Shown here in pieces: positions 3,835-30,372 of a stretch of 64,000 nt of DNA (its first letter is position 1; every line of letters begins with the position of its first letter). The DNA lies in sequence record OV876900. The stretch is one strand, 5' to 3'. Origin of the DNA: Escherichia phage UGKSEcP2. The position numbers and the translations under genes are program-made. Under the pieces are notes generated by a model. That model ran no database searches. It was not told where the DNA came from and worked only from the letters and a program-made list of their open reading frames with translations.

Positions 3835-4472
3835 TGAATGAACCCCAATTACTAATTGAAACTTGGGGTCAACCTGGCGAAATTATTGATGGCGTGCCAA
3901 TGCTTGAATCTCATGATGGAAAAGACCTAGGTTTAAAACCCGGTTTATACATCGAAGGAATATTCATGCAAGCGGAAGTCGTCAATAGAAATAAACGTCT
4001 TTATCCAAAACGCATATTAGAAAAAGCGGTAAAAGACTATATCAATGAGCAAGTTTTAACTAAACAAGCTCTCGGAGAATTAAATCATCCTCCACGCGCT
4101 AATGTTGACCCGATGCAAGCCGCTATCATTATAGAAGATATGTGGTGGAAAGGAAATGACGTATACGGACGAGCTCGTGTTATTGAAGGTGACCATGGTC
4201 CTGGAGATAAATTAGCAGCTAATATTCGTGCCGGATGGATTCCAGGAGTTTCTTCTCGTGGATTAGGTTCATTGACTGACACAAATAAAGGTTATCGTAT
4301 CGTAAACGAAGGATTCAAATTAACTGTAGGTGTTGATGCAGTATGGGGTCCAAGTGCTCCAGATGCATGGGTAACTCCTAAGGAAATTACCGAATCACAG
4401 ACGGCGGAAGCCGATACAAGTGCCGATGACGCCTATATGGCTCTCGCAGAGGCCATGAAAAAAGCGTTATAA
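3834..4472 (+). CDS. 21: prohead core scaffold protein and protease gp21
   Basis: 212-aa ORF, same length as T4 gp21; position between 68 and 22. Confidence 0.9.
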   Translation: MNEPQLLIETWGQPGEIIDGVPMLESHDGKDLGLKPGLYIEGIFMQAEVVNRNKRLYPKRILEKAVKDYINEQVLTKQALGELNHPPRANVDPMQAAIIIEDMWWKGNDVYGRARVIEGDHGPGDKLAANIRAGWIPGVSSRGLGSLTDTNKGYRIVNEGFKLTVGVDAVWGPSAPDAWVTPKEITESQTAEADTSADDAYMALAEAMKKAL

Positions 4473-4502: not shown

Positions 4503-5312
4503 ATGCTTAAAGAACAACTGATTGCTGAAGCGCAAAAAATTGATGCTTCCGTTGCTCTTGATAGTATTTTCGAATCAGTTAATATTTCTCCGGAAGCAAA
4601 AGAAACTTTCGGCACTGTATTCGAAGCTACCGTCAAGCAGCACGCCGTTAAATTAGCTGAATCTCATATCGCTAAAATTGCTGAAAAAGCAGAAGAAGAA
4701 GTAGAAAAAAATAAAGAAGAAGCCGAAGAAAAAGCTGAGAAGAAAATCGCTGAGCAAGCTTCTAAATTCATCGACCATCTTGCGAAAGAATGGCTCGCTG
4801 AAAATAAATTAGCAGTTGATAAAGGCATCAAAGCCGAACTGTTTGAATCCATGCTTGGTGGATTAAAAGAGCTCTTTGTTGAACACAACGTTGTTGTTCC
4901 AGAAGAATCAGTTGATGTTGTAGCTGAAATGGAAGAAGAGCTGCAAGAACATAAAGAAGAATCAGCTCGTCTGTTCGAAGAACTCAATAAGCGTGACGCA
5001 TATATCAATTATGTGCAGCGTGAAGTGGCATTGAGCGAAAGTACTAAAGATCTGACTGAGTCTCAAAAAGAAAAAGTCTCTGCTCTGGTCGAAGGTATGG
5101 ATTATTCAGATGCATTCTCAAGTAAATTGAGTGCCATCGTAGAAATGGTGAAGAAGTCTAATAAAGATGAAAGCACTATTACTGAGGGTATAAATACTCC
5201 TGATACTGAAGCAGCCGGACTGAATTTCGTCACTGAAGCTGTAGAAGATAAAACTGCACCTGGTGCAGAAGATATTGTAAGTGTATATGCGAAAGTCGCA
5301 TCTCGTTTCTAA
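4503..5312 (+). CDS. 22: prohead scaffold protein gp22
   Basis: 269-aa ORF, E/K-rich coiled-coil composition; late promoter upstream. Confidence 0.9.
   Translation: MLKEQLIAEAQKIDASVALDSIFESVNISPEAKETFGTVFEATVKQHAVKLAESHIAKIAEKAEEEVEKNKEEAEEKAEKKIAEQASKFIDHLAKEWLAENKLAVDKGIKAELFESMLGGLKELFVEHNVVVPEESVDVVAEMEEELQEHKEESARLFEELNKRDAYINYVQREVALSESTKDLTESQKEKVSALVEGMDYSDAFSSKLSAIVEMVKKSNKDESTITEGINTPDTEAAGLNFVTEAVEDKTAPGAEDIVSVYAKVASRF
5189..5196 (+). promoter_or_regulatory. late promoter TATAAATA (gene 23), inside 3' end of gene 22
   Basis: Exact motif ~135 nt upstream of the gene 23 ATG. Confidence 0.7.
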
Positions 5313-5330
5313 TTTTAAAGGTTAACACAA

Positions 5331-6896
5331 ATGACTATCAAAACTAAAGCTGAACTTTTGAACAAATGGAAGCCATTACTGGAAGGTGAAGGTTTACCGG
5401 AAATTGCTAATAGCAAACAAGCGATTATCGCTAAAATCTTTGAAAACCAGGAAAAAGATTTCCAGACAGCTCCAGAATACAAAGACGAAAAAATCGCTCA
5501 GGCGTTCGGTTCTTTCTTAACAGAAGCTGAAATCGGTGGTGACCACGGTTACAACGCTACTAACATCGCTGCTGGTCAGACTTCTGGCGCAGTAACTCAG
5601 ATTGGCCCAGCTGTTATGGGTATGGTACGTCGTGCTATTCCTAACCTGATTGCTTTCGATATTTGCGGTGTTCAGCCGATGAATAGCCCGACTGGCCAGG
5701 TATTCGCACTGCGTGCAGTATATGGTAAAGACCCAATCGCTGCTGATGCTAAAGAAGCATTCCACCCAATGTATGGTCCAGATGCAATGTTCTCTGGTCA
5801 GGGTGCTGCTAAGAAATTCACTGCTTTAACTGCTGGCGCTACTACTGTCAAAGGTGACATCTATACTTATTTCTTCCAGGAAACTGGTACTGTATATCTG
5901 CAGGCTTCCTCTGTAGTAACAATTAGTTCAAGTGCTGATGATGCAGCTAAATTAGATGCTGAAATTAAGAAACAAATGGAAGCTGGTGTACTGGTAGAAA
6001 TCGCTGAAGGTATGGCTACTTCTATCGCTGAACTTCAGGAAGGTTTCAACGGTTCTACCGATAACCCATGGAATGAAATGGGCTTCCGTATCGATAAACA
6101 AGTTATCGAAGCTAAATCTCGTCAGCTGAAAGCTGCTTACTCTATCGAATTAGCACAAGACCTCCGCGCTGTTCACGGTATGGATGCTGATGCTGAACTG
6201 TCTGGTATTCTGGCTACCGAAATCATGCTGGAAATCAACCGCGAAGTTGTTGATTGGATTAACTACTCAGCTCAGGTTGGTAAATCTGGTATGACCCTGA
6301 CTCCGGGTTCTAAAGCTGGTGTATTTGACTTCCAGGATCCGATTGATATTCGTGGTGCTCGCTGGGCGGGTGAATCCTTTAAAGCTCTGTTGTTCCAGAT
6401 TGACAAAGAAGCAGTTGAAATTGCTCGTCAGACCGGTCGTGGTGAAGGTAACTTCATTATCGCTTCCCGTAACGTAGTTAACGTTCTGGCTTCAGTTGAT
6501 ACTGGCATTTCTTATGCTGCACAGGGTCTGGCTACCGGCTTTAACACTGATACTACCAAGTCAGTATTTGCTGGTGTTCTGGGTGGTAAATACCGTGTAT
6601 ATATCGACCAGTATGCTAAACAGGATTATTTCACTGTAGGTTATAAAGGTCCGAACGAAATGGATGCTGGTATTTACTACGCTCCATATGTAGCTCTGAC
6701 TCCGCTGCGTGGTTCCGATCCGAAGAACTTCCAACCGGTAATGGGATTCAAAACTCGTTACGGTATCGGTATCAACCCATTTGCAGAATCCGCTGCTCAG
6801 GCTCCGGCTTCTCGCATCCAGAGCGGTATGCCTTCTATTCTGAATAGCCTTGGTAAAAACGCTTACTTCCGCCGTGTATATGTTAAAGGTATCTAA
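5331..6896 (+). CDS. 23: major capsid protein gp23
   Basis: 521-aa ORF; sequence recognised as T4-type gp23; strong codon bias typical of highly expressed gene. Confidence 0.97.
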   Translation: MTIKTKAELLNKWKPLLEGEGLPEIANSKQAIIAKIFENQEKDFQTAPEYKDEKIAQAFGSFLTEAEIGGDHGYNATNIAAGQTSGAVTQIGPAVMGMVRRAIPNLIAFDICGVQPMNSPTGQVFALRAVYGKDPIAADAKEAFHPMYGPDAMFSGQGAAKKFTALTAGATTVKGDIYTYFFQETGTVYLQASSVVTISSSADDAAKLDAEIKKQMEAGVLVEIAEGMATSIAELQEGFNGSTDNPWNEMGFRIDKQVIEAKSRQLKAAYSIELAQDLRAVHGMDADAELSGILATEIMLEINREVVDWINYSAQVGKSGMTLTPGSKAGVFDFQDPIDIRGARWAGESFKALLFQIDKEAVEIARQTGRGEGNFIIASRNVVNVLASVDTGISYAAQGLATGFNTDTTKSVFAGVLGGKYRVYIDQYAKQDYFTVGYKGPNEMDAGIYYAPYVALTPLRGSDPKNFQPVMGFKTRYGIGINPFAESAAQAPASRIQSGMPSILNSLGKNAYFRRVYVKGI

Positions 6897-6911
6897 TCTT
6901 TGACGATTTAA

Positions 6912-6927
6912 GGGACCTTCGGGTCCC
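6912..6927 (+). terminator. terminator after gene 23 (GGGACC-TTCG-GGTCCC + T-run)
   Basis: Perfect hairpin with UUCG tetraloop followed by TTT..TTTTT. Confidence 0.75.
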
Positions 6928-6944
6928 TTTAGTTGTTTTTATGG

Positions 6945-6952
6945 TATAAATA
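6945..6952 (+). promoter_or_regulatory. late promoter TATAAATA (gene 24)
   Basis: Exact motif between the gene 23 terminator and gene 24. Confidence 0.7.
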
Positions 6953-6979
6953 AATCATATAAACCAAAAGGAAAGCGCA

Positions 6980-8263
6980 ATGGCTAAAATCAACGAACTT
7001 CTGCGCGAATCAACCACAACGAATAGCAACTCAATCGGTCGCCCAAATCTCGTTGCTTTGACTCGCGCTACCACTAAATTAATATATTCTGACATTGTAG
7101 CAACGCAAAGAACTAATCAACCTGTTGCTGCTTTTTATGGTATCAAATACCTTAACCCGGATAACGAATTTACATTTAAAACTGGTGCTACTTACGCCGG
7201 CGAAGCTGGGTATGTAGACCGAGAACAAATCACAGAATTAACAGAAGAGTCTAAATTAACTCTCAATAAAGGCGATTTATTCAAATATAATAATATCGTT
7301 TATAAAGTATTAGAAGATACACCATTTGCTGATATTGAAGAAAGCGATTTAGAATTAGCTCTTCAGATTGCAATTGTTCTTTTAAAAGTTCGTCTATTTT
7401 CTGATGCTGCAGTAACAAGCAAATTTGAAAGCTCTAATAGTGAAATTGCGGATGCTAGATTCCAGATTAATAAATGGCAAACCGCAGTTAAATCTCGTAA
7501 ACTTAAAACTGGCATCACAGTCGAATTAGCACAAGATTTAGAAGCAAATGGATTCGATGCTCCTAATTTCTTGGAAGATTTGCTTGCAACTGAAATGGCG
7601 GATGAAATCAATAAAGATATTCTACAGTCTTTGATTACAGTATCAAAACGCTATAAAGTTACAGGAATTACTGATACTGGATTCATTGATTTGAGTTATG
7701 CATCTGCACCTGAAGCTGGTCGTTCATTATACCGAATGGTGTGTGAAATGGTTTCACATATCCAAAAAGAATCAACTTATACAGCAACGTTCTGTGTTGC
7801 TTCAGCTCGTGCCGCTGCGATTCTTGCTGCATCAGGTTGGTTAAAACATAAACCAGAAGATGACAAATATCTTTCACAAAATGCCTACGGGTTCTTAGCT
7901 AATGGTTTACCGCTTTATTGCGATACCAACAGTCCATTAGATTATGTAATCGTTGGCGTAGTAGAAAATATTGGTGAAAAAGAAATTGTTGGATCAATTT
8001 TCTATGCTCCGTATACAGAAGGTCTTGACTTAGATGACCCTGAACATGTAGGTGCATTTAAAGTTGTAGTTGATCCAGAAAGTTTGCAGCCATCTATCGG
8101 TTTATTAGTTAGATATGCTTTATCTGCAAATCCTTACACTGTAGCAAAAGATGAAAAAGAAGCAAGAGTAATTGATGGTGGAGACATGGATAAAATGGCG
8201 GGTCGTTCAGATTTGTCTGTTTTATTAGGTGTTAAGTTACCAAAAATTATCATTGATGAATAA
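6980..8263 (+). CDS. 24: capsid vertex protein gp24
   Basis: 427-aa ORF, gp23 paralogue (shared ELAQDL motif), late promoter upstream. Confidence 0.93.
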   Translation: MAKINELLRESTTTNSNSIGRPNLVALTRATTKLIYSDIVATQRTNQPVAAFYGIKYLNPDNEFTFKTGATYAGEAGYVDREQITELTEESKLTLNKGDLFKYNNIVYKVLEDTPFADIEESDLELALQIAIVLLKVRLFSDAAVTSKFESSNSEIADARFQINKWQTAVKSRKLKTGITVELAQDLEANGFDAPNFLEDLLATEMADEINKDILQSLITVSKRYKVTGITDTGFIDLSYASAPEAGRSLYRMVCEMVSHIQKESTYTATFCVASARAAAILAASGWLKHKPEDDKYLSQNAYGFLANGLPLYCDTNSPLDYVIVGVVENIGEKEIVGSIFYAPYTEGLDLDDPEHVGAFKVVVDPESLQPSIGLLVRYALSANPYTVAKDEKEARVIDGGDMDKMAGRSDLSVLLGVKLPKIIIDE

Positions 8264-8269
8264 AACAAA

Positions 8270-8285
8270 GGGACCGAAAGGTCCC
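8270..8285. terminator. bidirectional terminator between gene 24 (+) and rnlB (-)
   Basis: GGGACC-GAAA-GGTCCC flanked by A-run and T-run. Confidence 0.75.
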
Positions 8286-8292
8286 TTTTTAT

Positions 8293-9297
8293 TTAACTTA
8301 CCAATTCAATCCAAGCCGGACGAAGTACATCTTGTACCATTTTAACTAATTCCTTCTTAATCAAAGAAGGATTATCCGCTTGAGTTAGAGTAATACCTTC
8401 ACGAGAAGTTTCTTCCAAAATATCTTGAACAGTTAGTCCCATCACCTTTCCAAAATCTTTTGGACCAATTTCACCAATTTTAGAAATAACGTTATTTACT
8501 CGGTTCAGTGTAACGTAACAAGCTAAAATTCCAACCAATTTGTTATCAGCTTCTGACAGTTCAACTTTAGCTTTAATAGGCTTATCAGACTTTTTCTTTT
8601 CACTAAATTTAGAGTTCTTGTATTTGATAGCTACGCGATTGCCATTAGGCATCCAAGAAGGATAACAAGGTTTCAATACATATCCTTCAGCGGTAAATAC
8701 TTCGCCTTTTGCTTCAGCATTCCAAACGCATTTATTTGCATCAACTAATCCAGCATGGTCTACCGTAAAATTATAATCCTGGACGACAGAATCTAAATCA
8801 TTTGGCAATTTAATAAGCTCTTCAAATTTACCGCGACCTAAAAGTGGAGCCATTTTAAATTTAAATGTATTGCAGAATGATTCCATCATATAATCATCGA
8901 CATAAGTCACATCACCACTTTCTGTAGTAACAATAATGTCAAATACATAAAAATCTTTATCGCCATAATCGACATTCTTCTGAATGCCAGGTCCGGCGAA
9001 TTCACCGAAGACTTGATAAGATACAACTGCTGAAGTTTCCATAATATCTTGTACTGCTTTAATGGAATCAGAGTAATTCTTCAAAATAATTTCATACCCA
9101 AAGAAATCTTCAGCAGGAAGAATAAGACCAGTGCGTTTAGCACAAGTTACTTTATCACGCTCAATAATTAATGAGAAATTTGTGCCATGAATCTTTTCAC
9201 GAGCTACCCATTCGCCGCCAGTCAATCCTAAACTGTAAAGTTTTTCAATGAATTTAGAATTGTAATGATTTTCAAGACTGCTATACTTTTTAAACAT
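8293..9297 (-). CDS. rnlB: RNA ligase 2
   Basis: 334-aa ORF; N-terminal ligase motif region (KIHGTNFS) recognised as T4 Rnl2. Confidence 0.9.
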
Positions 9298-9306
9298 AAT
9301 TAATCC

Positions 9307-9585
9307 TCAAAATGTAATTTCTAACCAATCACCATCACGCTGATCACTATTGACTTTAAAACTAAATCCTTCTTTTCTCAGCCAATCACCAATTTCTTCA
9401 GTAATCAATTTATCGCGAGCAGTACAATAATAACTAAAATATGTTTTACCTTGTTCAGCTGCTTTATTAGCAAGTTCCGAAAAATCTTTAATAAAACACT
9501 CTAGCTTAAACTGTTTACTTTTAAGTGCTTTTTCGCGTAATCGATTAGCAAAAGATTCATTTTCATAAAGATCATACTGTTCCAT
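9307..9585 (-). CDS. hypothetical protein (rnlB-hoc interval)
   Basis: 92-aa ORF, ATG start, tightly packed with neighbours. Confidence 0.6.
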   Translation of the reverse strand: MEQYDLYENESFANRLREKALKSKQFKLECFIKDFSELANKAAEQGKTYFSYYCTARDKLITEEIGDWLRKEGFSFKVNSDQRDGDWLEITF

Positions 9586-9588
9586 TTT

Positions 9589-9786
9589 TCACCTTTTATT
9601 AATATGTCTTTTTCTATAGACAACTTTTTCTCGAGTTTCAAATTTATTCTTAGCAGTCATAGCTCGAGCCCATAATACAGCCACTTCTTTCGCCTGTAAG
9701 TTTAATTCACGAGCAATTTCAATGAATGACTTTCCAGACTCATGAAGAGTAAACACCACAACCTCAGTTCTCATAATCAATCTCAT
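9589..9786 (-). CDS. hypothetical small basic protein (rnlB-hoc interval)
   Basis: 65-aa ORF, ATG start. Confidence 0.55.
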   Translation of the reverse strand: MRLIMRTEVVVFTLHESGKSFIEIARELNLQAKEVAVLWARAMTAKNKFETREKVVYRKRHINKR

Positions 9787-9854
9787 GTTATCGAGTTGAT
9801 GCCATTATATACATCATTTTCTGAGTATGTTTTGTGTGCTTTCAAAATGAAGAA

Positions 9855-9870
9855 AGGGGCCGAAGCCCCT
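9855..9870 (-). terminator. terminator after hoc
   Basis: GGGGC-TTCG-GCCCC on minus strand followed by U-rich tract. Confidence 0.65.
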
Positions 9871-9881
9871 TATGATTATGA

Positions 9882-11594
9882 TTATGGATAGGTATAGATG
9901 ATACCAGTTTCTAAAGCAGTTTTATGAATGATGTATCCATTACGTGATTCTTGAACATCAACTTCTGGATAGTCTTTCATCATCTTCTGAAGAGTGTAAC
10001 GATGCAGGTAGTATTTACTGTCTGGATCTTCAGTTTTCCAATCTTTACCTTCTTCGGTCATTTTTTGGATTTCATCCATAACCCACCAACCGCACCAGAT
10101 ATAAGCTGAAGTACGATGTGGAAGAGGATGAACATAAGGCAATTCACCTTCTGGTTCCGGAGCAACTTTATCAGTTACCTGAACTTGGCCTGTTGCTTTA
10201 ACTGTTTTACTATCATAGTCGGTTGCTGTAACGACAGCAGTAACTTCAATAGTTTGACTTCCAATAGATGAGGTGTCAACGGTGTATACGTTAGTTGACC
10301 CTTCTACAGGAGAAGAATCTTTCTTCCATGAATAAGTAATTTGTGCTGCTTCAGGTGCTCCAGTAACATTAGCCGTAAATGTAGCCGAAGCATCTTGCTG
10401 AACGTTAATAGAAGGAGGAGTCAATGTAACCTGTGGATTCATTGTCTTCTTATTAACTGTCAATGATACTTCATTAGAAGTAACTTCCTTTTCATTGTAA
10501 TTTTCAGCCGTTACTTGGGCTACACACTTAACTGTTTTAGCTCCAACTGTGGTAGGAGTATAGTTAAATGTAGTAGTAGTTTCTCCATCGACCAGAGAAC
10601 CGTCAACATACCACTGATACGTAGCAGACGCTCCTGGTGGCTGTGAAGCCAAGGCAGCAGTAAATTGAACTGGGGTTCCAATTACCCCGGCAGCAGGATT
10701 AGCAGGAGTTACGGCTAACGTAGTTGTCTGTGTTTTCTTATTAACTGTTAATGATACTTCATTAGAAGTAACTGTTTTTGCGTCATAATCTGTTGCTGTT
10801 ACTTGCGCTACGCATTTAATTCTTTTTACTCCACTTGCAGTTGGAGTATAGCTAAATGTAGCAGAAGTCGCTTCACCAATTTGAGAATCATCTACATACC
10901 ACTGATACGTAGCAGATGCCCCATCAGGTTGAGAAGCTAAGGCAGCAGTAAATTCAACGGCTGTTCCAATCACTCCAGCTGGAGGACTATCAGGAGTTAC
11001 TGCCAAGGTAGTCGTCTGCGTCTTTTTATTAACAGTCAATGATACTTCATTAGAAGTAACGCTTAGTGCATCATAATCTGCCGCAGTTACTTGAGCTACA
11101 CACTTGATTTTTTTAACTCCGCTTGTGTCAGGAGTGTAATTGAATGTAGCGTCAGTTGCTTCGTCTACAGGAGAACCGTCAACGTGCCATTGATACGTAG
11201 CGTTTGCACCTGATGGCTGTGAAGCTAAGGCAGCGGTAAATTCAATTGGAGTTCCAATCACGCCAGCATCAGGGCTACCAGGAGTTACAGCTAAAGTAGT
11301 TGTTTGTGTCTTATTTTGAACTGTGATAGTTGTCGTAGTTTCTGCTGTTTCAGGTTCAGCTTCAGATTCTGGAACTGTATTTGTTGCAACTACTTTAATA
11401 GTCTTTTGACCTGCAGGTCCTTTTAGTACATAGCTAAAAGTTGCTTCAGCTCCATCCTGTGGAACATTATCTACACTCCAAGCATAGGTAATAGTTCCAC
11501 CTTCAGTTTGACCACTGGGTGTAGCAGTAAACTGCTTGGTTTCATCAATAACTCCTGTTGGGGTTTTAGGAGTTATATCAACTGTAAAAGTCAT
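9882..11594 (-). CDS. hoc: Hoc, highly immunogenic outer capsid protein, enlarged allele with five Ig-like domains
   Basis: 570-aa ORF; three tandem ~97-aa Ig-like repeats plus conserved C-terminal capsid-binding segment YVHPLPHRTSAYIWCGWW. Confidence 0.9.
   Translation of the reverse strand: MTFTVDITPKTPTGVIDETKQFTATPSGQTEGGTITYAWSVDNVPQDGAEATFSYVLKGPAGQKTIKVVATNTVPESEAEPETAETTTTITVQNKTQTTTLAVTPGSPDAGVIGTPIEFTAALASQPSGANATYQWHVDGSPVDEATDATFNYTPDTSGVKKIKCVAQVTAADYDALSVTSNEVSLTVNKKTQTTTLAVTPDSPPAGVIGTAVEFTAALASQPDGASATYQWYVDDSQIGEATSATFSYTPTASGVKRIKCVAQVTATDYDAKTVTSNEVSLTVNKKTQTTTLAVTPANPAAGVIGTPVQFTAALASQPPGASATYQWYVDGSLVDGETTTTFNYTPTTVGAKTVKCVAQVTAENYNEKEVTSNEVSLTVNKKTMNPQVTLTPPSINVQQDASATFTANVTGAPEAAQITYSWKKDSSPVEGSTNVYTVDTSSIGSQTIEVTAVVTATDYDSKTVKATGQVQVTDKVAPEPEGELPYVHPLPHRTSAYIWCGWWVMDEIQKMTEEGKDWKTEDPDSKYYLHRYTLQKMMKDYPEVDVQESRNGYIIHKTALETGIIYTYP
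10440..11312 (-). repeat. three tandem ~291-bp coding repeats inside hoc (Ig-like domain modules)
   Basis: Recurring blocks such as TTAACTGTCAATGATACTTCATTAGAAGTAAC near 10447, 10737 and 11027; repeat peptides ~80% identical. Confidence 0.8.
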
Positions 11595-22372: not shown

Positions 22373-22375
22373 CAA

Positions 22376-22393
22376 TGGGGACCGAAAGGTCCC
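22376..22393. terminator. bidirectional terminator between gene 54 (+) and minus-strand early ORF
   Basis: GGGGACC-GAAA-GGTCCCC with flanking T-run. Confidence 0.7.
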
Positions 22394-22400
22394 CATATTT

Positions 22401-22691
22401 TTATTTACGGAATGAAATAAAAGCAGCAACTGAAGCGACTAAACTGTCTTCAATATAAACTTCAATTTTTACCGGAGCTTCTGACTCAAATTTACCTGTT
22501 ACTACACCTTGGAAAATGCTTTCAGTCTGTTCTGGCTTTGAAAAATTTTCAGAAGGAAAAATTCCGAACTTTTTATCTGTTCCAAAAATTTTGATAAATT
22601 CATCATAAACTGCTTCATTAAAAGCGTTATCAGCAGGAATAACGCCTTCAACTACAAGTTCTTGACCTAAAAAGCGTAAAGAAGATTTCAT
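22401..22691 (-). CDS. hypothetical early protein between gene 54 and alt cluster
   Basis: 96-aa ORF; own early promoter and GAGGAA RBS. Confidence 0.6.
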   Translation of the reverse strand: MKSSLRFLGQELVVEGVIPADNAFNEAVYDEFIKIFGTDKKFGIFPSENFSKPEQTESIFQGVVTGKFESEAPVKIEVYIEDSLVASVAAFISFRK

Positions 22692-22722: not shown

Positions 22723-22752
22723 ATTATAACACAGCACGAGGGACTTGTAAAC
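22723..22752 (-). promoter_or_regulatory. early promoter GTTTAC-N18-TATAAT (ORF 22401..22691)
   Basis: -35 and -10 hexamers on minus strand, conserved leader with GAGGAA RBS. Confidence 0.65.
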
Positions 22753-24809
22753 TACATCTTGAACTTTTTAGACATTCCGTTGATGTTAACCAAAGAAGCC
22801 AAGATTTGAGAAACTTCGTTTTCCTCTTCTTTTGATTCTTCTACAAGGAATTGATTAAACCCAGCCATTGGACGAACTTCACCAGTTTCCATTAGATGAT
22901 CGCCATCATATACCGATTCTTCTAATTGTTCAGAAGGAGGAACGATTGTGCCTTCGATTAGATACTTGTTATAAGCAGTTTCTTTCATCATGTACGTGCT
23001 TACTTTATTAATCTTCAGCAAAATTCCACGCGGTAGAATAACTTCAGCTTCTGATGGAAATCCTGATAAATGACCTGGAACGATAACTTTGATTCGCTCA
23101 GCCCCTTTAATTACCATACCTACGCTAGTTTCAGCATCTTCATTCGCATAAGCAGAATGACTGCCCATATGCATTAAATCTTCAGCATCAACAGAACCTT
23201 CTCCTTCACCAGAAAATACTGCGCCGGAATCATCTAGAGCCATATAGTTTTTACCATGCTCACCGAAGATATTTGGTTTAAGCGATGTTGATACGAAGTT
23301 CTTGAAATAGAACATTTTATTTTCAATATTATGGCGTAAAGTTTTAAAAGTAACTTCTTGACCACGATAAAGCGTAGTTCCCGGAGGAAGAACTGATCCT
23401 TTGGCGAATGCAGAATCCATTGTCTCGATGTGTTTAATAGCTCGTTCCATGTATTCTTCACGGGTAGAATCCGGTTTACCTAAAAGGAACGAGTTCATTT
23501 CAACATATGAATCTGCACAATAATCTTCAATTACATCAGACTCAGCCTGAGTTAATCCTTTTGGAGTTACTTCGGTGCTTGCGTATTCATATGCCTGAGC
23601 AGCAGATTCATTAATCAATTTATAAATGCTATTCATGACAAATTGAATAATAGCTACTTTTTCGTCTGGCGTGGCTTTAGAACCTTTAACTAAATCATTG
23701 ATAATTTTCTTAATAACATCAAAGCTATTAGAAATATTAATGTCAGCGAGATCGCTCAAAATTTTATCGGTTTTATAATCAAAGAATTCTTTATTCTTTA
23801 AATATTCTTGAGAACCTTGATATGTTATATCGCTCTGCAGTCTGATAGACGGATCACGTAAACGTGCATGGGCCAATGCAATATGATTTCGGAAGCTTTC
23901 TAGTTCATAATCGTTAGATTTAAAACGAGAAGCACTTCTCATACCACCGATAGCTCCTTTGCTGAAGTTTGAACCAATCTGAATAACGCCAGAGTTCATT
24001 GGTCCTTCTGCTTTATATACTGGAACTTTAGATTCAAACTCTTGATATTTCTTAGCAGCGAAGCTATCGCCCTGGAGTGAAGCATCGACAGTAGAATATT
24101 GAGCTTGTGCTGCTAATCGACGACTAATTTTAGTTTTCTGAATAACAGCTTGATCCGTGCGCTTATCATTTTCTAAAGCAATAGAAGCAGCAACAGCAAC
24201 AGCTTTAGGAACAGCATTACCTGTTTTAACATCTACATAAACATCACCAACCTTTGATTCAACTTTTGTGAATAACTCAGTTGAAATAGGAGGTACACCT
24301 GGAATGTCTTCTAAATTGGCATTTTTACGGTAAACCATAATATATGCATACTTTTTATCATAATCCCAGATTTCCTTTAAAAGAACATATCGACCTGCTC
24401 CTTTAGTACGTACTAAACGGTCAGCAATAACTTGCATCTGACGAGCAGCGCCATTTGTTTTACTTTTTAGTACGCGGAATAGGCATGCGTCAATTTTATA
24501 CTGTTTCATTGTTTGAAGAGCAGTATCAAAAACCGCATTAATGACACCAATTGGATTTCCACCCAAGTTTTTAAGTTTAACTAATGATAGTTTCTCATTA
24601 ACACCTATCATTACGATATGCATCATTTTATCGCCTGGCTTAACGTTTTTATTTGTATCACCGCCAGAGGTGTATGTACAAAATCTAAATCCAGGAAGCA
24701 CGCTTTCTTCACCGGCTTGAATAGCAAAAATTTGAGGTATTTTATGCTTAGGATTTAAGTTAACAACCGGCGCCGAAGCGCCGTCAAATAATTCTGTAAT
24801 AAGTTCCAT
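22752..24809 (-). CDS. Alt-like ADP-ribosyltransferase paralogue
   Basis: 685-aa ORF; N-terminus MELITELFD as in Alt; C-terminal R-S-E motif triad (YRGQ, STS, EAEVILPRG). Confidence 0.8.
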   Translation of the reverse strand: MELITELFDGASAPVVNLNPKHKIPQIFAIQAGEESVLPGFRFCTYTSGGDTNKNVKPGDKMMHIVMIGVNEKLSLVKLKNLGGNPIGVINAVFDTALQTMKQYKIDACLFRVLKSKTNGAARQMQVIADRLVRTKGAGRYVLLKEIWDYDKKYAYIMVYRKNANLEDIPGVPPISTELFTKVESKVGDVYVDVKTGNAVPKAVAVAASIALENDKRTDQAVIQKTKISRRLAAQAQYSTVDASLQGDSFAAKKYQEFESKVPVYKAEGPMNSGVIQIGSNFSKGAIGGMRSASRFKSNDYELESFRNHIALAHARLRDPSIRLQSDITYQGSQEYLKNKEFFDYKTDKILSDLADINISNSFDVIKKIINDLVKGSKATPDEKVAIIQFVMNSIYKLINESAAQAYEYASTEVTPKGLTQAESDVIEDYCADSYVEMNSFLLGKPDSTREEYMERAIKHIETMDSAFAKGSVLPPGTTLYRGQEVTFKTLRHNIENKMFYFKNFVSTSLKPNIFGEHGKNYMALDDSGAVFSGEGEGSVDAEDLMHMGSHSAYANEDAETSVGMVIKGAERIKVIVPGHLSGFPSEAEVILPRGILLKINKVSTYMMKETAYNKYLIEGTIVPPSEQLEESVYDGDHLMETGEVRPMAGFNQFLVEESKEEENEVSQILASLVNINGMSKKFKM

Positions 24810-24812
24810 GAT

Positions 24813-26906
24813 TTATCCTTGAACGAACTTGTAAGGCATGTTTGCAATATCTATGCAAGATGCAATAATTCCAAGAGATGATTCTACTTTTTGTTTAACA
24901 TTTGATGAAACAAATGATGCAAAGTCAACTCTGTCTTCTATTTCAATATCATCTGTCATTGCAACTACTTCACCAGTTTCCATTAGACGGTCACCGTCAT
25001 AAATTACCGATTCGGTGAGTTCTTCCGTAGTCATAACTTCAGCTTGAATGAGTTTTGTATTATTAGATGTTGTTCCGTCATTATTAGAAGCATCAGTTAT
25101 TTTATTAACTTTGACCATCAATCCGCGTGGTAGAATAACTTCAGCTTCTGTTGCTATTCCGAGACTTCCTGGATATACAACATTAACTTTATGAGCTCCA
25201 TCAATTGCCCATCCTATTTGAACTTTAACGTATTCAGGATTTTCTTTATACGCTCTTATTTCATTTGGATTAATAGTTATTCCTTCTTCATTTTTATCAA
25301 CTGTTAATTCATTACGAGCTTCTGGTTCTAAAAGACCAATACCAGCATGCGTAATTCCAAAACGTCCAAAAATGATAGGAGTTAAAGAAGTAGATACAAA
25401 ATTTCTGAAATAGAACACTTTATTTTTAACTAGTGCTTCGTATATAGGAGCAGTCATGCTTTGAGCACGATAAACTGTAATGCCTTCTGGTATACGGTCA
25501 CCATTTTCAAAGGCTGAATCTAAATTATTTATCGCAGATTCAATTTCTTTTTCACTCATTACCTCATATCGTTCTGGATTGTAGCGACCTAAAAGAAGAT
25601 TATTGATGTCAGTATATCCTGAACCACAATACTCTCTAATGCCGCGCTTTTGTGATGGAGTATATTTAGAACCATCACGAGCAATAGTAATATCAATCAT
25701 TGGACCTGCACCAATTCCAGAAAAACTATAAATCATTCTTTTGAGGAATTTAGTTTTTGCTGCATTCCAGGAATTTTTAGTTATTTCTTCCCAGACTTCA
25801 TCTGTCTGTCCTTTACGAGTTTTATTATGTTTATCAAGCCAGTTATCTTTATATTCTTCAAATAATTGATTAACAACTGTTGCGTATTTCTCTAAACATT
25901 TTATTGAAGTAGTTGGTTCATTTTTAATCGCATTAAGAATTACATCTTTAATTTTTTCAGAAACTTCATTAACCTCACTTTTTGAAAAGAATTTATAGTC
26001 ATAATGAAGTTCATCTGCAGTTCCTTCAGCAATAATTTTTGCTGCCTTAGTTTTAGAAGCTAATGAATTAATTCCAAGCTTCATTTCTTCTGCTTCGGGA
26101 ATTAAAGGAGCTGTAGCAGGTTTATTGAAATTAGCTGCGGTAGATTCATACTTCTGGAATAATTCACTTTCAAATCTAGAAGATTCCAATGATTGACTTT
26201 GTGCAATTGCTCTACGGGAAATTTTAACTTTAACGATTACAGCTTGGTCAGAACGTTTATCATTTTCTTGTGCAATAGATGCTGCAATTGCCTCATTTTT
26301 AGTTACTTGAGCTCCAGTATCTTTATTGATATAAACATCACCGACTTTCGATTCAACTTTAGTAAAGAGCTCGGTACTAATTTCTGGAACTCCTGGAATG
26401 TCTTCTAATGATACATTTTTGCGATGTATAAGAATATATGCGTACTTTTTATCGTAATCCCAGAGTTCCTTAAGAAGGACGTATCTGCCACCTGAACGAC
26501 TGCGGATAAGTCTATCAGCAATAAGTTGAATTTGTCGAGCTTGACCAGCAGTTTTAGACTTAAGAATACGGAGCATACAGGCATCAATTTTATACTGACG
26601 CATCGTTTGCATTGCAACTGTAAAAACTGAATTGATATAATTAATTGGGCTTGGACCGAGACCTTTTAATTTAGCAATTGAACCTTTAGCAGTTAATGTA
26701 AAAGGAACAATATGCATCATTTTATCGCCCATCTTTAAATCGCGATTAGTATCACCTCCAGATGTATAGGTACATAAACGAAAGCCTGGTTGTTCAATTG
26801 CGTCATCAACATGAACTGAAAAAATTTGCGGTATTTTCTTCTTTGGATTTAAGTTTGTAATCGGAAGAGTAGTATCTTCGTCAAATAATTCTGTAATGAG
26901 TTCCAT
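24813..26906 (-). CDS. alt: Alt ADP-ribosyltransferase (virion-packaged)
   Basis: 697 aa from second ATG (track ORF has MM start); MELITELFDEDTTLPITNL N-terminus; R-S-E motifs; late promoter upstream. Confidence 0.85.
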   Translation of the reverse strand: MELITELFDEDTTLPITNLNPKKKIPQIFSVHVDDAIEQPGFRLCTYTSGGDTNRDLKMGDKMMHIVPFTLTAKGSIAKLKGLGPSPINYINSVFTVAMQTMRQYKIDACMLRILKSKTAGQARQIQLIADRLIRSRSGGRYVLLKELWDYDKKYAYILIHRKNVSLEDIPGVPEISTELFTKVESKVGDVYINKDTGAQVTKNEAIAASIAQENDKRSDQAVIVKVKISRRAIAQSQSLESSRFESELFQKYESTAANFNKPATAPLIPEAEEMKLGINSLASKTKAAKIIAEGTADELHYDYKFFSKSEVNEVSEKIKDVILNAIKNEPTTSIKCLEKYATVVNQLFEEYKDNWLDKHNKTRKGQTDEVWEEITKNSWNAAKTKFLKRMIYSFSGIGAGPMIDITIARDGSKYTPSQKRGIREYCGSGYTDINNLLLGRYNPERYEVMSEKEIESAINNLDSAFENGDRIPEGITVYRAQSMTAPIYEALVKNKVFYFRNFVSTSLTPIIFGRFGITHAGIGLLEPEARNELTVDKNEEGITINPNEIRAYKENPEYVKVQIGWAIDGAHKVNVVYPGSLGIATEAEVILPRGLMVKVNKITDASNNDGTTSNNTKLIQAEVMTTEELTESVIYDGDRLMETGEVVAMTDDIEIEDRVDFASFVSSNVKQKVESSLGIIASCIDIANMPYKFVQG

Positions 26907-26929
26907 CATATCCTCTCTAGTGTTTATTC

Positions 26930-26937
26930 TATTTATA
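26930..26937 (-). promoter_or_regulatory. late promoter TATAAATA (alt)
   Basis: TATTTATA on + strand ~25 nt upstream of alt start. Confidence 0.6.
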
Positions 26938-26945
26938 AAATTAAA

Positions 26946-26957
26946 GGCCCGAAGGCC
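26946..26957 (-). terminator. stem-loop upstream of alt late promoter
   Basis: GGCC-CGAA-GGCC flanked by A/T runs. Confidence 0.45.
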
Positions 26958-26958
26958 T

Positions 26959-27147
26959 TTAATAATCTATTGGTAAGAGAGTACGATATATTTCAAACTT
27001 TGGACCTTTTTCATAGGCATCAAATGTTTCTGTGAATTTATTATAAGCATATGCATCTATAAATTCAATCATAATTTGTGATACAGAAGTAGAAACATCT
27101 CCACCTTCTTTTTGAGCCACGACAATTGTTTCTAAGTAAGCTTTCAT
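26959..27147 (-). CDS. hypothetical protein
   Basis: 62-aa ORF, start overlaps ligase stop. Confidence 0.5.
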   Translation of the reverse strand: MKAYLETIVVAQKEGGDVSTSVSQIMIEFIDAYAYNKFTETFDAYEKGPKFEIYRTLLPIDY

Positions 27148-28604
27148 AGACCAGTTACCTCATGAAAATCACCAAATACATCCTCGAATGTATTAGCTTT
27201 AGTTTTATCTTCACGTAAACGAATCGCAATCGGAAGAAATAATTTAACGTAATCAGTGCGGCCATCAGATTTTAACCAACCGTTGCATTCGCACTCTAGA
27301 ATTTTTCCAATATAATAATTTTGGTTTTCCATAATGCGAGTACGGTCAAGTTCATGCGATTTTACACCGGCTTTATCTTTTAAGCCTGAACCAGCATTTA
27401 CTTTAATTTTTCCACACTCTGATTCAAGAATAAATCCACCTGCTTTAGTAGGGTCTTTACGGTGAGGATAAATTCCTACAATTTTTAAATCAACATCAAT
27501 TACTTCTTTAAATTTATAAAGATTTTTTGAACGAGCATTTTCCCACAATCCATCGGTATTTTTGAGAATAATACCTTCAAGACCTTGGTCAATATACTTT
27601 TTATAAATTACCTTAGCTTCATCTAGGTTATTTACTACCTGGTTTTCAATTAAAATTACTTTATCATATCCTGATGTCATTTGTTCTAGTTTAGAAAAAC
27701 GTACATCATATTTTAAACGAAACGCCGGAAGACCGTATATTTCTACCAACGGGACATAATCCCAGACCTGAAACTTCATGCATTGAGCTTCTTTTTCTGA
27801 AATAGTTCCCTTTAAAGATTTATTGGCGATTCCATTAGAAGCAGTACGCGATTCAGCTACTTCGGAAAACTCTTTAGCTTTACTGATTTCAGGAGCATCA
27901 AAAAGAAAATCTAGGCCTTCTGGCTCCTTTTCAACCTGCTCATGGTATACCAATTCGCCATCAATTAACACGCCTTCTGGATGAATCTGGCGAGCTTCAG
28001 CAGTCATTTTGATTAACTCTTCCTTAAGAAGATCTAATCCTAGATATTCATTACCAGCTCGTGATAAAAGACGAACATCATCTAATTCATCACCTCGGAC
28101 TTCAGCAAAACACCGAGCTCCATCTGCTTTTAACTGTGCAAAAGCTGGAAATTTGATATTCTTACTAATGCCTTTTTCATCATAAGAACTTGCCAGCATT
28201 TGAGGCTGTTCAGGAATTAAACCTGGCCAAACTTTATTTGCGATAGATACTGAAGCACCGCATTCAAGATCTCGCATCATAACTCGACGCAAAACTTCAA
28301 CATCATCCTTTTTACCATCAGTGATATATCCAGTTAATTCCTCAATTGCAGCATTTCCAGTCAATTTCCGAGTAGCTAACGTGAATTCAATGAAGTCAAG
28401 CATATCGGTAATAGTCAGCATTCCAAAACTCTGGGTAGCAATACCAGGTTTAGGCCATTTCTTGATATAATACTGTAACCCACGAGAATAAGTCAGACGA
28501 TATACTCGTTTAAGCAATTCATTATCTTTATTCTTTTCAAGAATTGCTTGCTTCTGCTTAGTTGATCCAATAGATGCTATTTCATTCAGAATTTTAAGAA
28601 TCAT
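27144..28604 (-). CDS. 30: ATP-dependent DNA ligase gp30
   Basis: 486-aa ORF; recognised as T4 DNA ligase. Confidence 0.93.
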   Translation of the reverse strand: MILKILNEIASIGSTKQKQAILEKNKDNELLKRVYRLTYSRGLQYYIKKWPKPGIATQSFGMLTITDMLDFIEFTLATRKLTGNAAIEELTGYITDGKKDDVEVLRRVMMRDLECGASVSIANKVWPGLIPEQPQMLASSYDEKGISKNIKFPAFAQLKADGARCFAEVRGDELDDVRLLSRAGNEYLGLDLLKEELIKMTAEARQIHPEGVLIDGELVYHEQVEKEPEGLDFLFDAPEISKAKEFSEVAESRTASNGIANKSLKGTISEKEAQCMKFQVWDYVPLVEIYGLPAFRLKYDVRFSKLEQMTSGYDKVILIENQVVNNLDEAKVIYKKYIDQGLEGIILKNTDGLWENARSKNLYKFKEVIDVDLKIVGIYPHRKDPTKAGGFILESECGKIKVNAGSGLKDKAGVKSHELDRTRIMENQNYYIGKILECECNGWLKSDGRTDYVKLFLPIAIRLREDKTKANTFEDVFGDFHEVTGL

Positions 28605-28870: not shown

Positions 28871-29709
28871 TAGAATGCTCCTTGGAAAATATTATCACCG
28901 CTAGTAGGTCTATTATACAAATACTCTATGCCACCAGGTTTAATATAGTTCCATGTCTGAAATGGATGTGTCTGATATGGATGATATAGATGATTATAAG
29001 GATTAAATCCAGGCGTTCTCCAGGTAGTGTTCCAAGTAAAAGAATCGTTTTTAACCATCTTCTCAATTAAATCTTTTATAGCTTTTTCACTATCAAAACT
29101 TTCTTTATTTTCCTTCGGCGAAAAAAGCTTATTTTCTACATCATTCCATGTATAAACTCGCTGGGCAGTTTTTGGAATATTGTCACGCTCTCCTCGAGCC
29201 ATCCAATAAACTGGAACATTTAATATTTCACTCGCATGATCGCAGTGGTGAGCGAGATCGTCAATATAACAAATTACGTTATATTTCTCTTTTGCCTTTT
29301 TGAACAGCTCTTCTTTTGAAGAATCATGACCACACATCATTACTTCTGAGAAGGCACCAGGAAAAAGAGCATTCAAATTAAATTGACGATTCAGCAGAGC
29401 GTCAATAGAATCACCCAATGCTGTAACAGCTACAAAATTATAATCTTCTTTTAATTTATTAATTACACACAGGGCATCTTTATATGGAGACAAGTAACGA
29501 ATAAAATCTGATCGATTATATTTTTCAATTAGCTTGACACCGAGTTCTTCATCACAATTAAAGAGTTTACCTGGAGAAATAAATTTCTCATCTTGGATCA
29601 TTTTTAAAATATGTTCTAACGGAAGATTATATTTCTGAGCAAAATAAGGAAGACCTGATTGCCAGCTTAAACATACTCCATCAATATCAGTTAAAATAGT
29701 AGGCTTCAT
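28870..29709 (-). CDS. HAD-superfamily hydrolase-like protein
   Basis: 279-aa ORF; N-terminal ILTDIDGV resembles HAD motif I. Confidence 0.65.
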   Translation of the reverse strand: MKPTILTDIDGVCLSWQSGLPYFAQKYNLPLEHILKMIQDEKFISPGKLFNCDEELGVKLIEKYNRSDFIRYLSPYKDALCVINKLKEDYNFVAVTALGDSIDALLNRQFNLNALFPGAFSEVMMCGHDSSKEELFKKAKEKYNVICYIDDLAHHCDHASEILNVPVYWMARGERDNIPKTAQRVYTWNDVENKLFSPKENKESFDSEKAIKDLIEKMVKNDSFTWNTTWRTPGFNPYNHLYHPYQTHPFQTWNYIKPGGIEYLYNRPTSGDNIFQGAF

Positions 29710-30164
29710 AGAGAGTCTCTTAATAGGTTTAACACATCAATAAATTCAGCTTCGGTTAGTATTGTATCATCTTTTGTTAGACCACTAGCCATGCTGTGCT
29801 TCAAAACTTTTCCTTTCGAGGCTTGTAATGCATCACGAAAGCCCCTGTTTTGGAACGCTGCTTCAAAATATGCATTTGTGTATAATTCTTTCCACGCTGG
29901 AGAGTATCTTGAAAACGGAACTCCAAGCCAGAAGAGGGTCCCACGGTCCTGAGCTCTAGCATAAGCTCGTCCAGCTTGTTGGGCGGCAAGCCCGGATAAC
30001 CCAAATATACGATGTTGCTGTTCAACATTTTTCACCTTGCATCCTTGGAGGAATCCTTCGAGACCTCCAAATTGGATACCATCCATAACAAAAGGCCATT
30101 GGGCGAAATTACTTAATGCACATGATGGCCATCTAAAATTGCTTCTAATCTCTAACTCAGACAT
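29706..30164 (-). CDS. NADAR-like (YbiA-family) protein
   Basis: 152 aa from ATG (track ORF begins at TTG); LSNF...F..DG..F...E....K pattern reminiscent of NADAR domain. Confidence 0.6.
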   Translation of the reverse strand: MSELEIRSNFRWPSCALSNFAQWPFVMDGIQFGGLEGFLQGCKVKNVEQQHRIFGLSGLAAQQAGRAYARAQDRGTLFWLGVPFSRYSPAWKELYTNAYFEAAFQNRGFRDALQASKGKVLKHSMASGLTKDDTILTEAEFIDVLNLLRDSL

Positions 30165-30372
30165 TTTCAATACTTATAATTTCAACATCAGCCCAATGAC
30201 CGTAACTTGGTAAACGGTCTTCAATAGATAATCCGCCATCATATTTAAGCATTTTAATTGTCATAATATATGGCTCTAAATGGTCTTCAGTGAGCGGAGA
30301 GACATCAGTCACACGATAAGTAACTTCGACCATTTCCGTGCCCAGTAATTTCTTGATTAATTTCTTAAACAT
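30157..30372 (-). CDS. hypothetical protein
   Basis: 71-aa ORF. Confidence 0.5.
   Translation of the reverse strand: MFKKLIKKLLGTEMVEVTYRVTDVSPLTEDHLEPYIMTIKMLKYDGGLSIEDRLPSYGHWADVEIISIENV

Follow-up and report, generated by a model that had tools for sequence, protein, structure and literature searches.

A second predicted Alt-family ADP-ribosyltransferase gene is common in T-even phages and appears as a deletion remnant in T4

Alt, which enters the cell with the phage DNA and reprograms the host, is the textbook case of such an injected enzyme, and what is known of it comes entirely from phage T4. The genome of Escherichia phage UGKSEcP2 (sequence record OV876900), analyzed here as a stretch of 64,000 nucleotides termed the window, carries two Alt-type genes side by side, and this locus raises the question of what the second gene is, whether reference T4 has it too, and whether its product would be a second injected enzyme with host targets of its own. 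The original prediction, made from the sequence alone, described two neighboring same-strand open reading frames (ORFs) of 697 and 685 aa, and the ORF listing bears this out: the first, alt, lies at 24813–26906 and the second at 22752–24809, both on the minus strand and with their stop codons included. We refer to the second gene as alt.-2, the name it carries in phages RB14 and ime09. The window is a segment of a T-even (Tequatrovirus) phage genome, and the slot in which the Alt family is expected, from gene 30 and alt.1 to alt.-3 and gene 54, holds both genes. The 4.9 kb around the alt locus match 543 records; the best match is Escherichia phage UGKSEcP1 (99.7% identity), with an Alt protein 100% identical to that of the window, and the other best-matching records show 97–98.6% identity.

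Whether reference T4 has the same arrangement had been left as a question, and the answer is that it does not. In T4, alt (682 aa) is followed by two small ORFs, alt.-1 and alt.-2 (NP_049810 and NP_049809), which the T4 record describes as "an old duplication of the first part of gene alt". Their DNA is ~97% identical to the first ~370 nt of the second gene of the window and is followed by the same downstream flank. A 1-nt deletion in an A-run splits the T4 frame into two ORFs, and after ~370 nt the T4 sequence skips to the final few codons of the gene in the window (T4 stretch compared, 4066–4451; window, 22763–24470). The 1699 bp lost in T4 lie between copies of the 9-bp repeat CTAAAAAGT, which occurs once in T4 and twice in the window, on the minus strand at 24462–24470 (upstream copy) and 22763–22771 (downstream copy), the two end points of the deletion. 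These alignments show that alt.-1 and alt.-2 of T4 are remnants of a full-length gene that was truncated by a microhomology deletion, and not a partial duplication.

The distribution of the two states was assessed with a 130-nt probe across the T4 junction, which was contiguous in 91 of 498 matching phage records (~18%); in most of the others the two halves of the probe match separately. A copy at least 95% identical to the 685-aa protein is held by 396 phage records, with identities of 100% in UGKSEcP1, 99.4% in ime09 and 98.2% in T2. Two full genes are present in T2, AR1, RB14, RB10, ime09 and PYPS2T, where they are usually annotated as two Alt-like ADP-ribosyltransferases, and duplications of alt in T4-like genomes were noted by Nolan et al. 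2006 (PMC1524935). The two-gene arrangement is already known, since hundreds of Tequatrovirus records, that of T2 among them, contain these proteins with annotation; it is the ancestral and majority state of T-even phages, and T4 is the exception.

The products of the two genes are 41% identical over their full length (BLASTP, E 5e-157), and this identity is unevenly distributed: 68% over aa 1–235, which agrees with the common Alt N-terminus (first ~200 aa) of the original prediction, ~13% over aa 236–415, ~35% in the ADP-ribosyltransferase (ART) domain and ~37% in the C-terminal tail. Both proteins match the PHROG family "Alt-like RNA polymerase ADP-ribosyltransferase" (phrog_802) end to end at E ≤ 1e-255 (3.6e-271 for alt). 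The Pfam family PF03496 (ADPrib_exo_Tox; gathering cut-off 23.4 bits) is matched with 128.8 bits (2.1e-37) by alt and 73.0 bits (2.6e-20) by alt.-2. An N-terminal Pfam family, PF26846, is listed in precomputed tables, and NCBIfam contains no model for either protein.

The catalytic domain comprises aa 416–627 in alt (25026–25661, minus strand; PF03496) and aa 416–622 in alt.-2 (22944–23564, minus strand; supported by Pfam, VIP2 alignment and Foldseek). The R-S-E triad that had been recognized in both ORFs, together with the quoted motifs, is present in each. In alt it consists of R480 in YRAQ (25467–25469), S505-T-S (S505 at 25392–25394) and E587-A-E589 (25146–25148 and 25140–25142); in alt.-2, of R482 in YRGQ (23364–23366), S507-T-S (S507 at 23289–23291) and E587-A-E589 (23049–23051 and 23043–23045), all on the minus strand. 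The catalytic Arg, S-T-S and E-x-E residues of both proteins are invariant across family alignments of 37 and 39 sequences, with R482, S507, E587 and E589 of alt.-2 unchanged in 39 family members, and the Arg and E-x-E positions align with YRW and SEKEI of VIP2. Careful alignment thus shows no loss of R-S-E residues, and the second ORF did not prove to be a T4 gene with a non-ART role. Sequence comparison supports placing both genes among the Alt-family ADP-ribosyltransferases, each with its R / S-T-S / E-x-E site intact.

A PDB sequence search with the whole Alt.-2 protein gave no match at E up to 1, and the C-terminal 282 aa gave weak matches to VIP2 and CDTa (E ≥ 0.017), which were used for motif alignment only; the PDB copy searched contains no solved structure of Alt. 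The AlphaFold (AF2) models of Alt.-2 and alt (predicted local distance difference test, pLDDT, 76.8 and 77.6) share one layout, in which an N-terminal alpha/beta domain ends near residue 235 and is followed by an all-helical domain, the ART domain and a low-confidence C-terminal tail. In the ART domain models, the 40–50-residue insert after S-T-S is poorly predicted; outside this insert, the pLDDT of the Alt.-2 ART model is mostly 74–95. Foldseek matched this model to Vis, Certhrax, C3bot, CDTa and VIP2 (E 1e-7 to 1e-4), with probability 1.00 for Vis, C3bot, CDTa and VIP2 against the PDB and a target-normalized TM-score of ~0.6 for single-domain targets. An ART fold is therefore predicted for Alt.-2 by modeling.

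The N-terminal alpha/beta domains (aa 7–235) lie at 26202–26888 in alt and 24105–24791 in alt.-2, and the all-helical middle domains (aa 236–415) at 25662–26201 and 23565–24104, all on the minus strand. The helical part, about residues 250–415, is modeled with pLDDT in the high 80s to 90s in both proteins (84–93 in alt). The strong divergence of the central regions claimed in the original prediction is confirmed: beyond the ~13% identity given above, sequence homology between the alt and alt.-2 middles is undetectable, and profile–profile comparison of the two middle-domain types with hhalign found no homology (E 0.12). The further claim that these are different middle domains did not hold, as the same helical fold is predicted for both. 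The Alt.-2-type middle is weakly collinear with types from Acinetobacter phages (hhalign, E ~3e-4). Unrelated middle domains were considered and rejected, given that the region measures 164–204 aa throughout the Alt family, that the helix patterns of alt and Alt.-2 are collinear in the AF2 models, and that both models superpose, over almost their full length, on an independent Alt model, that of Shigella phage SP18 (query-normalized TM-scores of 0.72 over 658 columns for Alt.-2 and 0.67 over 684 columns for alt). Compared indirectly, through this third model, the two middle regions are predicted to share a single helical fold whose sequence has diverged beyond recognition.

Differences are also found within the ART domain. 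The 40–50-aa insert after S-T-S cannot be aligned between alt and alt.-2. Turn 1 of the ADP-ribosylating turn–turn (ARTT) loop reads GFPSEAE in Alt.-2, GIATEAE in window alt and APSNEME in T4 Alt; Alt.-2 has an aromatic residue in this turn, as does VIP2 (GFASEKE). In C3-like toxins, the aromatic residue of ARTT turn 1 contributes to target recognition. In a sample consisting of the window phage, T2, AR1 and PYPS2T, the ratio of nonsynonymous to synonymous substitution rates (dN/dS) of alt.-2 is 0.03–0.05 for the whole gene and does not exceed 0.08 in any domain (dS 0.12–0.25). By its sequence, alt.-2 appears functional, and it is under strong purifying selection.

How the second gene would be expressed is suggested by the signals upstream of alt. 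A T4-type late promoter box, TATAAATA, is matched exactly at 26930–26937 (minus strand), 20 nt upstream of the alt ATGATG, and is the single exact match on the minus strand between 22300 and 27200. The proposed late promoter of the upstream copy is confirmed in this way, and only the upstream gene has one. Downstream of alt.1, a terminator-like hairpin with a UUCG loop (26940–26963, minus strand; −13.5 kcal/mol, z −3.6) ends the alt.1 unit, and its U-tract extends into the promoter box; it was missed by a generic terminator scan and seen by direct folding. The alt ORF can be read from the first ATG (24813–26909, minus strand, 698 aa) or from the second; GAGG sits 2 nt ahead of the first and 5 nt ahead of the second, and position 26906 is the likelier start because the second ATG yields the T4 Alt start MELITE. 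Only 3 nt separate the alt stop codon from the alt.-2 start, and the AAGGA ribosome-binding site of alt.-2 falls within the end of alt. Box and terminator scans found no further late box or terminator on the minus strand up to the hairpin after alt.-3. Since alt.-2 lies 3 nt downstream with its own AAGGA and the late promoter is found only at alt, the gene is most likely co-transcribed with alt from this promoter.

In T4 Alt, the prohead protease gp21 cleaves at ITE-6 and LTE-619 (PMC5694885), and counterparts of both sites were identified in both window proteins, which open with MELITE|LF. The N-terminal propeptide MELITE, with the gp21 motif I-T-E6, is encoded at 26889–26906 in alt, as in T4 Alt, and at 24792–24809 in alt.-2. 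At the C-terminus, alt has the T4 site TTEELTE|SVIYDGD (motif L-T-E632 / S), which would release a propeptide of aa 633–697 (24816–25010), and in alt.-2 the residues aligned with this site form the gp21-type motif L-E-E631 / S, in SEQLEE|SVYDGD, with a propeptide of aa 632–685 (22755–22916; all features on the minus strand). Across the family, the P1 glutamates E6 and E631/E632 never vary, and neither do D635 and G636 of alt.-2. It is plausible, chiefly from these conserved motifs, that Alt.-2 also enters the prohead and is processed.

Considering these observations together, we hypothesize that the late promoter just past the alt.1 terminator drives one transcript on which alt is followed, 3 nt later, by alt.-2. 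Each product would consist of a MELITE propeptide, an alpha/beta N-terminal domain of ~230 aa, a helical domain of ~180 aa, a C3/VIP2-type ART and a C-terminal propeptide past L-x-E|S. By analogy to T4 Alt, both proteins would be built into the prohead scaffolding core, trimmed at both ends by gp21, retained in the filled head and injected with the DNA, whereupon they would move ADP-ribose from NAD+ onto arginines of host proteins. Capsid loading would fall to the N-terminal domain, the part that follows the phage lineage, and substrate choice may be seated in the helical domain, the insert after S-T-S and ARTT turn 1. Because the enzymes differ exactly where substrate choice is expected, they probably modify different sets of host proteins. 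That both are injected and that their targets are distinct, as the original prediction proposed, are plausible readings of the conserved gp21 motifs, the differing ARTT loop and the strong purifying selection. Taken as a whole, this chain, in which both proteins are late, packaged, gp21-trimmed and injected arginine ADP-ribosyltransferases with different targets, seems to us moderately probable; that both are active ADP-ribosyltransferases is more certain than the whole, and that their targets are distinct is less so.

Several points weigh against this reading. The gene has no intact copy in T4 and in 91 of the 498 records, and is therefore dispensable at least under laboratory conditions. The literature on alt.-2, on two-copy Alt and on the virion proteomics of two-copy phages yielded nothing specific and turned up neither proteomic nor biochemical or genetic work on Alt.-2. 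The models have pLDDT below 50 around both cleavage sites (residues 1–11 and 630–662). Specificity for protein arginines is deduced from the E-x-E motif and by comparison with T4 Alt. Capsid-core loading is a presumed role of the N-terminal domain, and selection of substrates by the helical domain is a guess from its variability.

The variability of the Alt family was further analyzed across phage genera, and it points to a modular history. The N-terminal domains (235 aa) group by phage genus, and the remainder of the protein groups by effector type across genera. The N-terminal domains of Tequatrovirus Alt and Alt.-2 share the 68% identity noted above, and those of the three copies in Escherichia phage MX01 (Dhakavirus) share 67–88%; across genera the values are 42–46%, with 45% between alt.-2 and the Dhakavirus copies. 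Behind this domain, window alt resembles MX01 copy a (middle 65%, ART 96%, tail 59%), and window Alt.-2 resembles MX01 copy c and JS10 Alt (middle 45%, ART 59%, tail 66%). At the DNA level, window alt and T4 alt are 96–99% identical over nt 1–700 and 98% over the last 120 nt, with 36–87% between. Nucleotides 1390–1840 of window alt (25067–25517), which encode part of the ART, are 90–97% identical to MX01 copy a, against only 40–60% for the 5' 700 nt, which indicates a recent cassette exchange between phage genera inside the alt gene. Metagenomic variants were also found in which the Alt.-2 effector part is 98% identical and the N-terminal domain only 70–74%. Among Tequatrovirus alt alleles, 292 records are at least 95% identical to the window type, also present in T2, and 212 lie at 60–80%, the band of the T4-type Alts (~70%); either allele combines freely with the presence of alt.-2.

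Several relatives show further variation in architecture. MX01 (NC_031934) carries three tandem Alt-like genes of 694, 681 and 707 aa at 4995–11255 of the stretch compared, separated by 3-nt gaps and located between homologs of alt.1 and alt.-3 (copy a, 4995–7079); copy c has S-A-S in place of S-T-S, and copy b has WRGQ in place of YRxQ. Alt is annotated as "split" in Acinetobacter phages ZZ1 and Henu6, Aeromonas phage 50AhydR13PP and Citrobacter phage CF1 (BFVD matches), with one ORF for the N-terminal domain (~270–320 aa) and another for the middle and ART (~390–470 aa); real splits and frameshifts are both conceivable. Across 1.84 billion representative proteins, the N-terminal domain was found in only 69, nearly all of them Alt-like ARTs of 600–712 aa. 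In its strong form, the idea of a general-purpose loader joined to effectors of other types was largely rejected, nearly all 69 being on ARTs. Two distant relatives depart from this pattern: P0216 (541 aa) has no recognizable ART motifs after the N-terminal domain, and P0215 (485 aa) has a short ART-like part with Lys at the Arg position (LYK) and without the first glutamate of E-x-E. They may represent non-ART or inactive cargo on the same loading domain.

On the evidence of these alignments, the alt locus appears to evolve through swaps of effector cassettes, with the N-terminal module in front of them staying with the phage lineage. A broader proposal would treat it as a polymorphic-effector system in the phage head, with an N-terminal loader retained alongside the capsid into which it has to fit, a warhead made of the helical domain, ART and C-terminal propeptide that passes from one phage genus to another, and arrays of one to three genes; Alt.-2 would then be a dedicated effector, possibly a counter-defense against a host factor absent from E. 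coli B and K-12 laboratory strains, and lost in the T4 lineage by the 1.7-kb deletion. The genus-wise N-terminal domains, the type-wise effectors, the cross-genus identity of the ART-coding DNA, the metagenomic variants and the three MX01 copies all fit this proposal. As almost every N-terminal domain is attached to an ART, the warheads would be variants of one enzyme and not different toxins. We put this extension forward as a tentative possibility.

The hypothesis of two injected enzymes with different targets has to be weighed against simpler roles for Alt.-2. The protein might be packaged and injected only to modify the same targets as Alt, such as Arg265 of the RNA polymerase alpha subunit, and so raise the dose or insure against loss of alt. 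The shared architecture, catalytic residues and cleavage motifs would suit such redundancy, T4 lives without alt.-2, and T4 Alt has been reported as promiscuous, modifying RNA polymerase and probably other host proteins (PMC5512222). A spare copy would be expected to drift or to be homogenized with alt, yet the effector parts are only ~13–37% identical and the orthologs of alt.-2 are held at the low dN/dS given above; moreover, the ARTT turn and the insert after S-T-S differ between the two proteins, and Dhakavirus keeps the Alt.-2 effector type as a separate copy (MX01 copy c). We consider plain redundancy unlikely.

It is less probable still that Alt.-2 is not injected at all and is made late to act inside the producing cell, for example on late host or phage proteins, or is packaged mainly for head assembly. 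Packaging has been shown for T4 Alt only, and virion evidence for Alt.-2 was not found in the literature, which leaves some room for such a role. It would be hard to see, however, why a protein that never enters the prohead should conserve the two gp21 motifs along with the C-terminal propeptide and a lineage-specific N-terminal domain, and among the representative proteins searched this domain is found at the start of Alt-like ARTs and almost nowhere else. Finally, the deleted remnant in T4 and ~18% of matching records might suggest that alt.-2 is a duplicate in decay, or without catalytic activity, and heading for the T4 state; this is very improbable, since the 685-codon frame is intact with all its catalytic residues, 396 records hold nearly identical full-length copies, and dN/dS of 0.03–0.05 at substantial synonymous divergence rules out decay.

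The neighborhood of the two genes follows the T-even order. Upstream lie gene 30, encoding ligase (27144–28604), and alt.1 (26959–27147), and downstream lies alt.-3 (22401–22691), all on the minus strand; genes 54, 48 and 29 are on the plus strand and converge on the minus-strand alt cluster. The alt.-3 product has 96 aa and belongs to DUF5498, and T4 mutants with a C-terminal extension of alt.-3 escape the mRNA-ADP-ribosylating defense CmdTAC (PMC11618068). This gene has a near-consensus sigma-70 promoter of its own at 22723–22751 (minus strand), beginning directly past the Alt.-2 stop codon; it consists of TTTACA, a 17-nt spacer and TATAAT preceded by TG (11 of 12 positions matching), and the −10 element in T4 is TATAGT. 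A bidirectional terminator at 22375–22396 is common to alt.-3 and gene 54. Farther upstream, a 75-aa ORF (29801–30028, minus strand) is situated in another frame within the gene 30.3 homolog (29706–30170, minus strand), and its position matches that of the T4 internal ORF 30.3'.

The presence of two genes is in itself an ordinary, already annotated feature. What is added here is the recognition of the T4 ORFs as a full gene with a deletion, the two-gene norm, the constraint on alt.-2 with both of its gp21 motifs, and the probable cassette exchange. T4 is a deletion derivative of the common two-gene state, with about four fifths of the matching T-even records, including T2, carrying a strongly conserved second Alt-like enzyme. 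The function of Alt.-2 has been overlooked because the model phage T4 lacks the gene. If Alt.-2 has its own targets, a typical T-even infection would, within its first seconds, modify more host proteins than work on T4 suggests, and differences between T2 and T4 in host takeover or defense evasion could partly trace to it.

Among known systems, the closest is T4 Alt (gpAlt, NP_049811), an NAD+:arginine ADP-ribosyltransferase present at ~40 copies per head and injected with the DNA. Window alt is its ortholog, in the same slot between alt.1 and alt.-3 and with the same ITE-6 and LTE|S gp21 sites; the two are 99% identical over aa 1–235 and ~85–95% in the C-terminal tail, whereas the middle (33%, range 11–40%) and the ART domain (65%) mark a different allele. 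Alt.-2 has all its domains in the same order as T4 Alt and keeps the catalytic residues and the cleavage motif at either end, but differs from T4-type Alt proteins in its 41% overall identity and its unrecognizable middle-domain sequence. The T4 ORFs alt.-1 and alt.-2 occupy the same locus as the second window gene, in frameshifted form and with 1699 bp deleted. In other Tevenvirinae (RB14, ime09, T2, AR1, PYPS2T, MX01 and JS10), the same tandem layout is found, with identical or near-identical proteins in the T-evens, while copy number varies from one to three. The C3/VIP2/iota-type toxins of the R-S-E clade (PF03496) share the catalytic fold and the R, S-T-S and E-x-E motifs; they are delivered by secretion or through a binary-toxin pore, in contrast to the phage capsid used by the Alt family, and Alt-type proteins additionally possess the N-terminal and helical domains, the 40–50-aa insert after S-T-S and gp21-cleaved propeptides at both ends.

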